Of a DNA stretch of 64,000 nucleotides, positions 11,396 to 50,910 are shown one piece after another. Position 1 is the stretch's first letter; every line of letters starts with the position of its first letter. The position numbers and the translations under genes are program-made. This DNA is from Asterias rubens (taxonomy: Eukaryota), in assembly GCF_902459465.1 (NCBI RefSeq), contig NC_047075.1:12214001-12278000 (forward strand). Reading direction: 5' to 3'. The notes below the pieces were generated by a model. It ran no database searches, was not told the origin of the DNA, and saw only the letters and a program-made list of their open reading frames with translations.

Positions 11396-12990
11396 CCAAC
11401 CATTCGTCTTTGTTTTCACTTTGATATTGTAGGATATGGTTCATCGCAATGACCGAATCCTCCTTACTCATGATTTGTGTACTGCTTGTTTCATCATACC
11501 TTGCATGGGTACCGTACCTGTTTTCGTACGTTTCAATATATTCATTGAGTGTCTTGGCATATTCAACCCCTTTATAATGCTTTGCAGTGTTGTCCCAAAT
11601 ACTTCTTGCCATTTTTGGGTTGATTTTTGCTCGGTGCAGTAAGATCTGGTCAGGGTCTTCTAACTTACACATATGTTTCTTGAGCTCTGGCACGTTATCT
11701 AGTGAGGTTTCACCATACCGACACATTACCCGATAAAATAAGTTACACCTATGTTCGGATACAGTTTTTTTTCTACTTTACACCGTCTTGAGTTAAGTTT
11801 ACACTCATTCTAGCCCCTTTGTCCCTCTCTTCTTGTTTGTTCACCATTATCTCCATAAATGATACTATCGATGTTGCTCTTACCCATGCTTCTAAGACAC
11901 CGTCTAGATCATTAACCATGTACTTGATATCCCCCTTTACTCTACTTGTGTCCCGTTTATACACGTCATCCATGTTTACAACTATCCATCGTGGAGTGCA
12001 TAGCACATACTGCAATGCCTGGCTGCCACTTGTCATGGATTTTGATTCTACATTCACGTTAATATTCTTTCTAAATGTTCTGTACCTGTACGTGTTAATG
12101 ATCTCAGACATTGCCCTCCGTACCCACATAACTACATGAAGATGAATTTCTTCTTTGTTCTCCCGTTTAGTACACTGTGCTTATCCCATATTACATATCT
12201 TGGAATACCCGGATTCATCTTTCTTACGTTTACTCGTTGTGTGTAACTGTTACTGGCCCTTTACCAAACAAATTGTCTATACGACCACAGTCAAATTCTG
12301 GGTCACCAAACGAGTCAATAACGAGTTCTGAGTCAATTGTTGGATCATGAATAGTACACACATAACCTACATTGTCATCTAACCCTTCTAGATATTCTAT
12401 AGTACTCTTAATGACATCTCCTATTGTCGACTCTTCACTAGCTTTACTTATGATAAGTCCTGTGAAATTGTGCTGTGCACACAAGTCTTTCTTGGTCTGG
12501 TATTCTAGCCCAAATTTCTCAGCACTATAAATATCACGCATCTTTAGGCTCCTTTGTTCATATTCTGGCAAATATGCAGCCATTTGCTCACTGAAATTAC
12601 TAGTACCCGAGTACACTGGCCAGTCACTTGTACATGAAGTCTTAGTTACTGTAAATACAGTATCTCTACGTACATTCTCGATGCCTCTAAATGCACCTCT
12701 ACTAATTGTTGGCGTAAGGCCTTCTACAATCTTTCTTGCAATTGGTGTCCCCGATAAATTGGTGGCACTGCCCTTAAACCATTTACCGGCTATATTGGCC
12801 GCTAAAATATATTTCTTCAAAACACATAAGTTATCTAAACTATTGTTTCTGAATCCAGTCGCCATTATGTTATCAATCGTCTACCTTGTCTTGTACTCCT
12901 TCAAAGTGCCGTCTCTATCAAACACTCAAGTTTGTTGTGACGTAGCTTTAGTCCGCCGAAGGCGTCTCTTGAGATCTGTCCTGTGTAAAC
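11396..12990 (-). pseudogene. NS1: Endogenous parvoviral element 1: N-terminal half of NS1 (HUH endonuclease) with stops and a frameshift; truncated before the helicase
   Basis: ORFs 12865-12230, 12129-11773 and 11726-11379 are collinear. HUH motif IHLHVVMW at ~12124-12147 and a Tyr motif QYVLC at ~11998-12012. The 3' ~110 aa are about 76% identical (manual count) to the region just upstream of the SF3 helicase at 50.5-50.9 kb. Confidence 0.8.
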
Positions 12991-13064
12991 AAAAATAAAG
13001 TTTCATAAGTTGTATGTTCTTTAAATTACAACAATTATTGTTTTCCGTTTACACATTTTATATA

Positions 13065-13337
13065 TTATTCACAAATGTTGGTGTACATACCGTCTATTTG
13101 GTCCTGAAGATTTCCGACTATTGCGTTTACGTGTCGTCTTCCAAACACTACTATTGCAATGAAAATTAGTAGTGATACTCCTCCTGTAATTGTTTGCGAT
13201 AAAGCAGAGCCAGATATTGGAGCAATGGCTTCGATGATGCTGTTCGTCTCATTGATCATATTTGAGTGCGACTGTTTTTTCTGTGCTCTTTCTTTTATAG
13301 CATCGCGTATGTTATTATTTGGAAATAATATGCACAT
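13065..13337 (-). CDS. Small 90-aa ORF with one hydrophobic segment upstream of NS1; putative viral left-end accessory gene
   Basis: Same strand and directly upstream of the EVE1 NS1. Hydrophobic stretch GVSLLIFIAIVVFG. Viral origin is inferred from position only. Confidence 0.4.
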   Translation of the reverse strand: MCILFPNNNIRDAIKERAQKKQSHSNMINETNSIIEAIAPISGSALSQTITGGVSLLIFIAIVVFGRRHVNAIVGNLQDQIDGMYTNICE

Positions 13338-13750
13338 TTGGTCATGCAGAGGTCAATCAACATAATGACAAAAACCACATACTGACAAAATCAACAAACT
13401 GACAAATTAGAAATGCTCAAACTACAGAGTGACAAAAATACCGTAATTAATTGTCAGTTTGTGGTTGTTACAGTATATATTGCTCAACCACATACTGACA
13501 CAATGTGCACAATTGTATAGACCTGGTATTCGCTCCTCCTCCTCCCTCTCCCCCTCCAGCTCACTAATCCTCTCCACCATCTTCAACAACCACCGCCTGT
13601 CTTGCATCTTCGGCAGATAATATTACTGTGGAAGTTTGAAAGTGAAGAATTAGACAAATTACGAGCAAGTTCAATACCAAGGCAGCAAATTTTATCGTTG
13701 AAAAAAATATTATGCTCATGAATAGTTAGTTAAAAAGAAAATGTAGTTAC

Positions 13751-13897
13751 CATATGCCACATTGTTTATCATAACTCTGTCCTCATCAAGGTCCGTCTCG
13801 CCATCTTCCTGGTTAACAATGCCATCCTTGGCAATGGGGTCCAACACATCCAGTACGATATCATATGTCTTGTTTGGTTTGGGCTTCGGACCCCCTC
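13751..13897 (-). pseudogene. Isolated exon resembling the C-terminal GGGP segment of Harbinger-associated Myb/SANT-like proteins
   Basis: AG/GT-bounded exon reading GGGPKPKPNKTYDIVLDVLDPIAKDGIV followed by an acidic stretch. Confidence 0.35.
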
Positions 13898-48949: not shown

Positions 48950-48985
48950 TTTTGTCCCTGTACATGTATATACAATAGACACATA

Positions 48986-49306
48986 TTATTTATTATTATT
49001 TCTTATTTGTACTCGGATTTCATTTTCTTTTATACTTTTACCTTGATCTTTATGCATTGCCTTCAATTGTAACACCACACTCACCATATCTCTAAAATTA
49101 TCATTACTTACAAAATCAATTAACCAATCCTTCTTTCTATTGTTGTAAGCATTTAATCCATATTTGAAAAAGTCTTCCCAAAAGTCTTTTTCTGTTTTGC
49201 TTGGTGAAACTCTTGATTCATATTGCACATTTAATGTGTACAAGTCATATTCAAGTATTTGACCGGTTTCCCCATTATGTAGCTTTTGTTGGCTTCTTGT
49301 CCTCAT
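48986..49306 (-). CDS. 106-aa middle ORF between NS1 and VP1 (putative NP-like viral accessory protein)
   Basis: ATG 3 nt after the NS1 stop; its stop is 36 nt before the VP1 ATG; uninterrupted; no motif recognised. Confidence 0.6.
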   Translation of the reverse strand: MRTRSQQKLHNGETGQILEYDLYTLNVQYESRVSPSKTEKDFWEDFFKYGLNAYNNRKKDWLIDFVSNDNFRDMVSVVLQLKAMHKDQGKSIKENEIRVQIRNNNK

Positions 49307-49309
49307 ACT

Positions 49310-50910
49310 TTATGCTTCTGATGGATTGTCCTCCTTGACTAGTTGGATATCTCCTAAGATCGCCTCTTGTGTTTCCTTATCTATTGATGCTAGTAAGGAC
49401 TCTAGTTCTGGATCCGTTTCCTTCTGAAAAATATCGACGGAATCAATAAATTCTTTAAAGTCATTATCGATTTCCATCTGTTCTGGTTTTGGCTTGAAGT
49501 CCTCATTGATTATATCATCGGGGACATATTCGCCAAGATTTGGAACACCTGGTGTGTGTTGCAAGTCTTGAACTGTGTCTTGTCTTCGCAACTCGAAGAA
49601 CGGGATAGTATCTTTGTCATCTATGAGTGGGTACATGCCACTGATTTGGCTACTGTCACTCTCATAGCTAGTTTGTGGTTCGTCATGAGTATAACGCATC
49701 CGTTTTGGGAATGGTGTGTCCAGAATTTCGTATACCTCAGGTTCTTCATCCTGGGCTTGTCTCGTACGCTTACATGTGTGATTTTTACACGTACTTTTAT
49801 CGTGGGCATCGACTTCTAAGATGTGCTTCCAGTGAGCCGATGCCTCCATTCTTGTGAATTTCTGATTCCCTACATTTGTTTTATCCATGACATCTTTGAT
49901 GAGGGCTCCCATCAGAATTTTCCCTCTCCCTGTGTAATCGAAGTCTTTGATACCTACTGTGCAAACAATAAGGTCGACCATATTATTTATATGTTGATGG
50001 ATGGCGTGCTCTTGATACTTGTCTTGGACTTTGGCAACCCCCTTGATTAGTTTCGAATAACACCCTGGGTGCAAGTCGGCTGACTTGTCTCCCCAGGGTA
50101 GTGTTTCCCATTCTATTTTGTTCCATTTATGAAGTTTGCACCTGTTCATCAAAGCGTCTCGGTTTAGTGAATTTATGACGTGTTTGAAGGGGTGTTGGTT
50201 AGTAGTTATTATACATGGCACTCTACCAATTATTGCCGCCCCTGCAAATTTCACTGCAATTTCAGCGTTTTCCCCACCAAGTAGTTCTTTCATTTTCTCT
50301 GACATCTGATCAGTGATTACAAGTTCATTGAAAAGGGTCCACCTTTTCCCTTTCATGGACATGAACTGGAATACATTTGCATCAGTCTGTCCTCCCCCGC
50401 CAATGATTGCGTGGTTTTGGCACGCTCTCTGAATTGGTCTCATAATCCACGACTAATTCCCAGCATTACTGGGTCCGTGGATGCACAACGAATTTTTCTT
50501 TTTGTTGGTTGTTGCCTTATTGAACACATTATGAATTTCATCTAACCATGTGTCCCTATCTTCAGAATGTATTTTGAGGAATTCATTCATTGCAGTGATG
50601 GACTCCTCTTTACTCATGATCTGAGTGCTTGTTGTTTCGTCGTACTGTGCATTGGTACCGTATCGATTTTGATACGTCTCAATATACTCATTGAGAGACT
50701 TTGCGTACTCTACACTCTTATAGTGTTTGGCCGCATTTTCCCAGATGCTTTTTGCAATTTGAGGATTAATAGTTGCTCTGTGTAGCAGGATTTGGTCAGT
50801 GTCTTCCATTTTACTCATATGTTTCTTAAGTTCGGGGACGTTGTCTAGTGACGTCTCCCCATACCTACACGTAACACGGTAAAATAAATTAAACCTATGC
50901 TCTGATACTG
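49310..50910 (-). pseudogene. NS1: EVE2 NS1 C-terminal half: SF3 helicase, Cys/His cluster and acidic tail; a single in-frame stop inside Walker A
   Basis: KKNSLCIHGPSNAG(N*)SWIMRP Walker A; RWTLFNE Walker B; MKELLGGE...VKF; CIITTN motif C. ORFs 50818-50453 and 50443-49310 share a frame. Confidence 0.9.

Follow-up and report, generated by a model that had tools for sequence, protein, structure and literature searches.

Broken pieces of two related parvoviruses near the end of a sea-star chromosome, probably captured separately

The window analysed here, a stretch of 64,000 nucleotides of the Asterias rubens contig NC_047075.1 (C15 below), contains two endogenous parvoviral elements, EVE1 from the left part of a viral genome and EVE2 from the right part, whose genes and neighbouring features are collected in Table 1. 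The first-pass annotation had placed both in one orientation at about these positions, with a left ORF, the HUH and helicase halves of NS1, a middle ORF and a capsid gene (VP). Both lie on the minus strand, and the left ORF, HUH motif, Walker A region, middle ORF and VP are present.

Table 1. Positions of the viral elements, their genes and other features in the window
Feature	Position	Strand	Remarks
EVE1, endogenous parvoviral element, left part of genome	11396..13320	-	edge at 11,396 truncated
NS1, N-terminal half, 490 codons	11396..12865	-	HUH motif and downstream tyrosine
Overlap segment in EVE1, 122 codons	11397..11762	-	
Small left ORF	13065..13337	-	90 codons from first ATG, ~64 from second
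Scaffold gap, 100 N	18216..18315	.	adjoins repeat array
Young LTR retrotransposon, Gypsy-type domain order	35672..44249	-	between EVE1 and EVE2
EVE2, endogenous parvoviral element, right part of genome	45533..50950	-	both ends truncated; 50950 approximate
Capsid (VP) gene	45533..48949	-	N-terminal PLA2-like motif; 3' end truncated
5'-truncated retroelement, presumably Penelope-type, with GIY-YIG endonuclease	46376..47410	-	inside VP; Pfam GIY-YIG E 5e-05
Middle ORF, 106 codons	48986..49306	-	uninterrupted
Recombination breakpoint against L028	49301	.	identity 94.3% on capsid side, 69.7% on NS1 side
NS1, C-terminal part, 547 codons, SF3 helicase	49310..50950	-	
Overlap segment in EVE2, 122 codons	50543..50908	-	

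The limits of EVE1 are the points where similarity to other copies ends. Its left ORF has a single strongly hydrophobic stretch of 19 residues, and the product is likely a small membrane protein; equivalents of 60 and 56 codons exist in two other copies (L028 and L034), and L045, a related copy on contig C10, has a 74-codon hydrophobic ORF in the matching position. The HUH motif was read in the translation of the NS1 half (12,144-12,136), at motif level only, with the tyrosine further downstream at 12,009, and this segment aligns with residues 209-349 of the Millport NS1, where the motif stands at 244. Three lesions damage the frame: near 12,240 it shifts, at 12,183 it meets a stop, and near 11,775-11,790 it has both a stop and a frameshift. 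At the first of these, contigs of three of the four runs compared show a small indel relative to the assembly, so an erroneous assembly or a minor allele may account for it. Upstream of EVE1, a stretch of 215 bases (13,320-13,534) folds only weakly and recurs once on C15 at 94% and twice on C22 at 74%; a host repeat starts past 13,535, and a MADF remnant lies at 14,450.

The NS1 part of EVE2 is interrupted by an in-frame stop at 50,455-50,453, within Walker A. Five additional genomic copies of the middle ORF were found (63-88%), and the Pfam search returned no family for this ORF or for the VP pieces. VP has a homologue deposited as "putative structural VP" and carries its PLA2-like motif, identified at motif level only, near 48,850-48,720; it contains several frameshifts and stops and ends at residue 807, compared with the 990-residue open frame of a related copy. 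When VP was checked for a jelly-roll capsid, eight weak matches among solved structures were obtained, with no capsid among them. The retroelement inside VP, which we take to be a Penelope from general knowledge of GIY-YIG retroelements, is bordered by a 12-base direct repeat, has very high read depth, and is missing from the first-pass annotation. Neither EVE1 nor EVE2 is predicted to yield a working NS1 or capsid. The earlier claim that the pair reconstructs a near-complete genome is not confirmed: the last ~180 codons of VP and both genome termini are absent, and stops and frameshifts disrupt EVE1 as well as EVE2.

The SF3 helicase in the NS1 part of EVE2 and the HUH motif in that of EVE1 agree with an assignment to the Parvoviridae as endogenous elements. 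L034, a copy with 74% identity to the EVE2 part of NS1, matches Pfam PF01057 at 36.2 bits (cut-off 20), a solved NS1 chain (9kbj) was matched at E 1e-05, and the EVE2 fragment itself stays below the cut-off of 20 for Parvo_NS1 (E 0.001, 18.6 bits). Homology over most of NS1, together with an NS1 and a long VP on the same strand, places both elements in the unclassified starfish parvo-like virus group; the best full-length matches among 517 were proteins of this group, and outside it matches were restricted to the helicase, at about 23-38%. These viruses were described by Waldron 2018, with a Millport NS1 of 868 aa and contigs of 5-6.5 kb, and have the same one-strand gene order, long NS1 and VP of about 990 aa as seen here (PMC6085071). 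Taken together, the window NS1 pieces align with Millport NS1 residues 6-751. Two of the named viruses are found in the same genome on C10, Caledonia 1 exactly (NS1 746/746, VP 988 aa) and Caledonia 3 with its NS1 at 98-99%. Since the window pieces reach only 28-54% identity with the named NS1 proteins tested (those of Millport 1, Caledonia 1 and Caledonia 3), they stand as a clade of their own, with tree support of 100/100. In ICTV practice the threshold is an NS1 identity above 85%, so that the window pieces do not equal any of these three; Caledonia 2 was judged indirectly, as its 838-aa ORF and the 827-aa relative given by Jackson et al. 2020 fit copies on C10 and C8 and not the window clade. 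The window copies are broken, whereas several copies on C10, C8 and C78 retain long open frames.

Two other parvovirus groups were considered and rejected. In Aquambidensovirus, which includes the sea star-associated densovirus, NS and VP lie on opposite strands, which does not fit the window, where the minus strand carries NS1, VP and the middle ORF alike. Hepanhamaparvovirus, of the former Hamaparvovirinae, has a one-strand layout with an upstream ORF. Its large genome of ~6.3 kb (PMC11357303) and marine invertebrate host are further likenesses, and the text of the Waldron tree figure puts the former Hamaparvovirinae near the starfish viruses (PMC6085071). However, their VP1 is without PLA2, while the start of the EVE2 VP has the PLA2-like motif; a C10 VP gave a weak match to Pfam PF08398 (E 0.022, under the cut-off).

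The clade apparently lacks a name so far. Its motifs had no match in the paper supplements searched, which cover part of the Waldron files, so a published record of it may exist; the literature search found "starfish parvo-like" in one work only. Comparison of the helicase part with viral contigs and metagenome contigs, by which only close relatives are detectable, gave 2 and 49 pattern matches, of which none was confirmed. In the passages and table consulted of Jackson et al. 2020, parvovirus-derived sequences are likewise assigned to sea-star genomes, an NS1 of up to 880 aa is given for another sea star, and the three Asterias rows of transcribed elements match Caledonia 1 or 2 at 90-100%, the window clade being absent from them; the same passages and table hold no genomic map, clustering or recombination of the sea-star elements (PMC7737747).

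Many further copies of the clade are present in the genome, and at least three (L028, L034 and L039) run from HUH to helicase within one locus, so the pair is not needed to see the genome, and the meaning that the first-pass annotation gave to its complementarity is not supported. The coding span of the clade is estimated near 6.6 kb, with an NS1 of about 900-920 codons; the joined NS1 of about 900 aa proposed earlier, there called long for the family, has a length usual in the lineage (relatives of 840-905 aa). All six chromosome-placed loci of the clade, four of them besides EVE1 and EVE2 and within 2.4 Mb, lie on C15 at 12.225-14.613 Mb, in its last 2.5 Mb, and the others are on the small unplaced contigs C24 and C38. 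A search with five viral proteins in the 20 kb adjoining the window gave no additional match. The common orientation of EVE1 and EVE2 holds as described, yet it has a chance of one in two, and the six C15 loci are divided into four minus and two plus.

Against L028, the identity of EVE2 changes abruptly within 10 bases of the NS1 stop, with 1671/1772 columns identical on the capsid side and 1126/1615 on the NS1 side (Fisher p 7e-84). In the similar capsid block omega equals 0.074 (p 0.002), which fits viral and not post-insertion divergence. Judged from these alignments, the donor virus of EVE2 is a recombinant, having the capsid cassette, but not NS1, in common with the donor of the neighbouring copy.

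EVE1 and EVE2 overlap without gaps over a segment that had been put at ~110 codons and ~76% amino acid identity, close to the measured values of 94/122 residues (77%) and 271/366 bases (74%); both snippets quoted in the first-pass annotation lie on the same diagonal, and homology reaches beyond the overlap to ~11,790 / 50,950, across a break in EVE1. Differences at codon positions 1/2/3 number 22/11/62. The estimated omega is 0.047 (dN 0.128, dS 2.72 with synonymous sites saturated; LRT against omega 1, p 5e-24), and in 2000 neutral simulations with the same 92 differences at most 71/118 residues stayed identical, while 91 were observed. Because protein identity is 77% at this omega, with synonymous sites saturated, EVE1 and EVE2 parted while still replicating viruses under purifying selection, prior to insertion, as the first-pass annotation had proposed. 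EVE1 resembles L034 (81%) more than it does EVE2 (77%), and EVE2 clusters with the C24 copies (support 83/78 for protein, 90/90 for DNA); the AU test speaks only marginally against sisterhood of EVE1 and EVE2, with p 0.039 on protein and 0.13 on DNA. The divergence of the two sequences is evidence of two viruses, not of two events.

The two elements lie 34.1 kb apart from left end to left end, which agrees with the 34 kb given before, but the inner distance is 32,212 bases, including the 100-N gap, whose true length may differ, and the 8.6-kb Gypsy element, whose LTRs are identical at 850/851 positions. The junctions of both elements, when searched, gave no terminal hairpin, no long inverted repeat and no repeat longer than 6 bases, and their truncated ends lack a target duplication; the 3-kb flanks of EVE1 and EVE2 show no similarity to each other. 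Contigs of runs X1 and X4 span the junction of EVE1 to host at 11,396, and those of X1 and X5 the junction at 13,320; the 5' junction of EVE2 is spanned in four of the four runs compared, and the 3' junction by X1 among the pieces listed. These runs come from four studies for the 5' end of EVE2 and from two for each end of EVE1. Both elements are present in several samples, and no empty site was seen for either; run X3, with an overall depth of only ~2, gives no cover of EVE1. No RNA run was among those listed as containing the elements, a result without bearing on expression.

We consider it probable that EVE1 and EVE2 are host-flanked broken pieces of two parvoviruses of one clade, captured separately and fitting each other by chance. 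Two distinct viruses related to the starfish parvo-like viruses would have donated them in two germline captures, with end-joining repair as the presumed route of the viral DNA into repeat-rich sequence close to the end of the chromosome-scale contig C15, a region that may retain such inserts by tolerating them. Decay and the insertion of the retroelement into the EVE2 VP followed. The overlap and apparent fit would be the product of two random truncations, and any current role would be that of a putative template for antisense RNA or piRNA. Separate integration, as stated in the first-pass annotation, is thus likely, a reading that we infer from the sequence.

An unlikely alternative is that a cell infected by both viruses supplied a mixed head-to-tail concatemer, which was inserted once and then opened by ~32 kb of nested transposons. 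It would explain the common strand and the coding-strand order, in which the VP end of EVE2 precedes the left ORF of EVE1, and it suits a spacer full of interspersed repeats, the young LTR element among them; in addition, divergent relatives adjoin head-to-tail on C10, and on C38 a VP piece stands directly upstream of a left ORF. However, the inner junctions have different flanks and no common target repeat, the host repeat at the inner flank of EVE2 is severed with its remainder absent from the window, and no viral remnant was detected between the elements. It is much less probable that contaminant viral DNA or a misjoin produced the arrangement. The gap at 18,216 stayed unbridged, and X1, which may be the assembled sample, has a depth of ~235-250 to the left of it against 82-107 on unique pieces to the right, a step that is absent in X4 and X5; against this, virus-host junctions are spanned in contigs of independent studies, a host retroelement sits inside VP, and a misjoin would alter the distance only. 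The sequence is likely a sea-star chromosome. A co-opted NS1 split into cooperating halves, or two segments of a bipartite virus, is highly improbable: the two parts make up most of the gene set and the left and middle ORFs are open, but on the coding strand the C-terminal half precedes the N-terminal half, which is wrong for cis-splicing and speaks against the earlier notion of complementary halves, Walker A is interrupted, NS1 and VP are broken, and single copies hold the full gene order in one locus. Local duplication of a single insert with complementary loss, rejected already in the first-pass annotation, can practically be dismissed, for proximity, common strand and gapless overlap are outweighed by saturated synonymous sites, low omega, unshared flanks, closer relatives elsewhere and the finding of no shared disabling mutations, quite unlike the true duplicate pair on C24 with its common 5' truncation, dS of 0.01-0.03 and omega of 0.84 and 1.77.

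As first described, the pair is of little importance, being two truncated inserts of related viruses whose overlap is likely due to chance. New is an apparently unnamed clade that joins the poorly classified starfish parvo-like viruses, whose fossil population records recombination at the NS1/capsid border and whose inserts are strongly clustered. To this account may be added, tentatively, that the region is a piRNA-producing trap, where inserts are retained since host transcription yields antisense piRNAs against incoming relatives. Clustering on distal C15 would agree with it, as would the related starfish contigs, whose RNA is mostly antisense and whose small RNAs are 5'U and 26-30 nt long (PMC6085071) and whose genomic copies share one strand in a 30-kb part of C10, and the enrichment of EVEs in Aedes piRNA clusters (PMC5497376). 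On the other side, both strands occur among the six C15 loci, and likewise among the window transposons, the clade is missing from Jackson's three Asterias rows and the three named NS1 compared, and weak selection in repeat-rich DNA can also cluster inserts. In Aedes, several viral inserts are likewise packed in small LTR-rich regions, but they stem from RNA viruses and their piRNAs have been mapped (PMC5497376), while the sea-star inserts stem from DNA viruses.

A putative role of the EVE loci as a piRNA source is plausible. We regard it as rather unlikely, though worth stating, that the distal 2.5 Mb of C15 traps parvoviruses as a piRNA region, in parallel with the C10 locus. It would then serve as a heritable archive that holds six or more insertions, their source a co-circulating clade which swaps cassettes and has a genome among the largest of any parvovirus; if true, an antiviral memory against DNA viruses, built from EVEs, would have been mapped in a deuterostome. 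Waldron et al. raised the question of whether inserts feed piRNAs through their landing location (PMC6085071), and the mapped loci let existing small-RNA libraries test it directly. The copies at the C10 locus match published piRNA-producing contigs, and contigs from sea-star tissue that resemble a parvovirus can be host DNA.

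Both endogenous parvoviral elements claimed by the first-pass annotation, EVE1 (the left part of a genome) and EVE2 (the right part), were borne out, and both lie on the minus strand. They overlap along an ungapped diagonal (11,397-11,762 against 50,543-50,908), with identity at 94 of 122 residues and at 271 of 366 bases; of the base differences, 22 fall at first, 11 at second and 62 at third codon positions. For this overlap, the codon model gave omega 0.047 (dS 2.72, dN 0.128), far below 1, which was rejected (p 5e-24), and neutral mutation to equal divergence left at most 71 of 118 residues identical in 2000 trials, while 91 were observed. 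The neutral control was a pair of copies on contig C24 (L035-L037) with a common 5' truncation, which showed dS of 0.01-0.03 and omega of 0.84 and 1.77. The sequences flanking EVE1 show no relation to those around EVE2. The elements come from two different viruses, and the independent viral origin proposed earlier is confirmed by the low omega, the excess over neutral simulation and the unrelated flanks. On the overlap tree of 11 rows (fragmentary L030, L032, L033, L038 and the units of contig C78 being excluded), EVE1 and EVE2 are not sisters, although the AU test against sisterhood gives marginal p values of 0.039 (protein) and 0.13 (DNA).

The genome yielded 27 matches to the helicase part (31 of 31 candidates scored), 21 to the N-terminal part and 19 to VP (capsid), and these copies split into two clades with 100/100 support. 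The idea that EVE1 and EVE2 form a complementary pair from which the genome is to be reconstructed was not supported, as in the clade of the window the copies L028, L034 and L039 each contain, within a single locus, both the HUH half and the helicase of NS1, the replication protein. The NS1 span is 2,758 bases in L028 and 2,712 in L034 (about 919 and 904 codons), and full-length NS1 relatives have 840, 868, 856 and 905 aa; therefore, the predicted size of about 900 aa was about right, although it is ordinary for this lineage and not long. EVE2 precedes EVE1 on the coding strand, and transcription reading through both would therefore encounter the NS1 halves in the wrong order. The coding length is near 6.6 kb, a rough value since it sums two spans from different copies; the Millport contig has 6,509 nt (Waldron et al. 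2018, PMC6085071), and about 6.4 kb is termed the largest known in a 2026 paper (PMC13426907).

Both elements are truncated at their ends without target duplication: no repeat longer than 6 bases was found at any junction, and no terminal hairpin at the junctions of EVE1 or EVE2. Later decay is visible in both (see the table). At the 12,240 break of EVE1, contigs of three of the four sequencing runs compared have a small indel relative to the assembly, and therefore this break may be untypical of the population. VP of EVE2 stops at residue 807, compared with a 990-residue frame in a related copy. Decay of EVE2 is still polymorphic, since runs X4 and X5 carry a small additional deletion in the helicase at window position 50,371. 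The in-frame fusion of the GIY-YIG retroelement with a VP piece is probably due to chance.

Coordinates of the two elements, other features of the window and related loci (window positions unless a contig is named)
Feature	Position	Strand	Remarks
EVE1	13,320 to 11,396	-	ends where matches to other genomic copies stop
EVE1 NS1 part		-	490 codons, HUH motif (translation)
EVE1 NS1 breaks	near 12,240; 12,183; near 11,780		
EVE1 small open ORF		-	single hydrophobic stretch; ORF conserved in two other copies
EVE2	about 50,950 to 45,533	-	ends where matches to other genomic copies stop
EVE2 NS1 part		-	547 codons, stop inside Walker A
EVE2 middle ORF		-	106 codons, open
EVE2 VP gene		-	PLA2-like motif, several breaks
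GIY-YIG retroelement within EVE2 VP			1 kb, flanked by 12-base direct repeat
VP/GIY-YIG open frame	46,737-47,729		330 codons, capsid fragment and GIY-YIG
Young LTR element	35,672-44,249		gag and pol open, 4-base target repeat
GDSL/SGNH hydrolase ORF	36,793-37,395		inside young LTR element
ORF with Helicase_C domain	3,090-3,650		
Two long ORFs	7,011-9,198		436 and 369 codons, no Pfam match
GC-rich multi-copy element	22,990-25,375		no Pfam match
Tandem repeats	52,037-52,567; 9,792-9,980		short units
Transposon remnants	53,400-59,000	+	DDE (HTH_psq, DDE_1); LINE (endonuclease, RT)
C15 loci of window's clade	EVE1, EVE2, 14.30, 14.36, 14.57-14.60, 14.60-14.61 Mb	4 minus, 2 plus	
L038, L039	C38:70,400-78,700		rearranged fragment array of window's clade; repeated left ORFs, VP piece immediately upstream of one
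L035-L037	C24:171,700-175,950; 638,600-666,300		one insert as inverted duplicate pair, about 2% apart; one copy interrupted by roughly 23-kb insertion
L042-L045	C10:10,748,000-10,776,000	one strand	four parvoviral units, about 30 kb: Caledonia 3-like copy (98-99% NS1), two identical Caledonia 1 units, 838-codon NS1 unit
L046-L051	C78:1-52,624		52.6-kb unplaced contig, largely tandem same-strand units of second clade; about seven with NS1, one divergent at about 40%
L040, L041	C8:2,318,800-2,326,600		single copy, long open NS1 and VP frames; VP mosaic against C10 unit (one block at 77-81%, remainder at 90-98%); left end duplicated, inverted repeats nearby

EVE2 carries a mosaic capsid block when compared with L028: identity is 94.3% at 47,480-49,301 (1671/1772 columns) and 69.7% beyond 49,301 (1126/1615 columns), and the change point lies at most 10 bases from the NS1 stop. 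Between the two copies, synonymous sites differ by 0.10-0.14 across VP and the middle ORF and by 0.87-0.92 across NS1. Since a 73-codon piece of VP gave omega 0.074 (p 0.002), the similar block on the capsid side diverged under selection, and this one short piece suggests that the swap arose when circulating viruses recombined, not by host gene conversion.

Among named proteins, those of the Millport and Caledonia starfish parvo-like viruses come closest; identity between the pieces in the window and the named NS1 proteins tested is only 28-54%, and the database entries that match these pieces are unnamed fragments only. No description of the window's clade was found in the literature searched, including supplement files in part. 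The one-strand layout of the elements argues against membership of sea star-associated densovirus, in which NS and VP lie on opposite strands. The PLA2-like motif of EVE2 VP argues against the former Hamaparvovirinae (PMC11357303). Waldron et al. 2018 (PMC6085071) reported four starfish parvo-like contigs from the common starfish, of which three yielded piRNA-like reads with 5'U and RNA that was mostly antisense; they were unable to test integration. Jackson et al. 2020 (PMC7737747) gave the host genome as the source of Caledonia 1- and 2-like transcripts. Caledonia 1 NS1 and VP are found on contig C10 without a single difference, and Caledonia 3 NS1 at 98-99%, so that the host is probably an Asterias sea star. 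This C10 array makes a promising candidate piRNA locus of the one-strand type, and by analogy with it and with Aedes (PMC5497376) the window elements could possibly, if doubtfully, be a piRNA source as well. The 838-codon NS1 unit on C10 has about 74% DNA identity to the Caledonia 1 units, yet directly adjoins them, and the last three units are bounded by a 1.9-kb direct repeat (99%). The C78 contig may be either a host array or concatemeric DNA.

Regarding the mechanism, it is quite probable that end joining twice incorporated viral DNA present in germ cells into DNA breaks, in a repeat-rich region that may have tolerated the inserts. The main rival, insertion of one mixed concatemer later separated by transposons, fits the coding-strand order of EVE2 then EVE1 and the direct adjoining of divergent units on C10, but we consider it improbable. 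Duplication is contradicted by omega, the flanks and the contrast with the C24 control.

The loci are clustered. Every chromosome-placed locus found of the window's clade lies on C15, the chromosome-scale contig bearing the window, at 12.225-14.613 Mb of 14.675 Mb, a stretch equal to 0.59% of the assembly, and two small contigs, C24 and C38, hold the remaining loci. The chance of five further loci in this stretch is near 7e-12 under a uniform model, with the stretch picked after the data were seen. The locus at 14.57-14.60 Mb is more divergent (40-59%) and broken up by insertions.

The insertions are common to samples. Junction bridging was assessed in 4 of 17 listed runs (X1, X3, X4 and X5, from four studies), using the longest contig pieces. 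The 5' junction of EVE2 was spanned by contigs of all four; among the matches listed, its 3' junction was spanned by X1, the EVE1 junction at 11,396 by X1 and X4, and that at 13,320 by X1 and X5. X1 may be the sample that was assembled. The inner distance between EVE1 and EVE2 is 32,212 bases, including a 100-N gap and the LTR retrotransposon, whose LTRs agree at 850 of 851 bases. In one X5 contig the match begins exactly past the LTR with 51 letters unmatched, which hints weakly at an allele lacking this element. Among the longest pieces of the four runs, no contig crossed the gap at 18,216. In X1, depth dropped from about 235-250 on the left side of the gap to 82-107 over unique pieces on the right side, contig depth not being equal to copy number, and X4 and X5 showed no such step. 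X1 contigs match the assembly exactly right of 18,216 and have several differing sites on the left, a pattern absent in X4 and X5.
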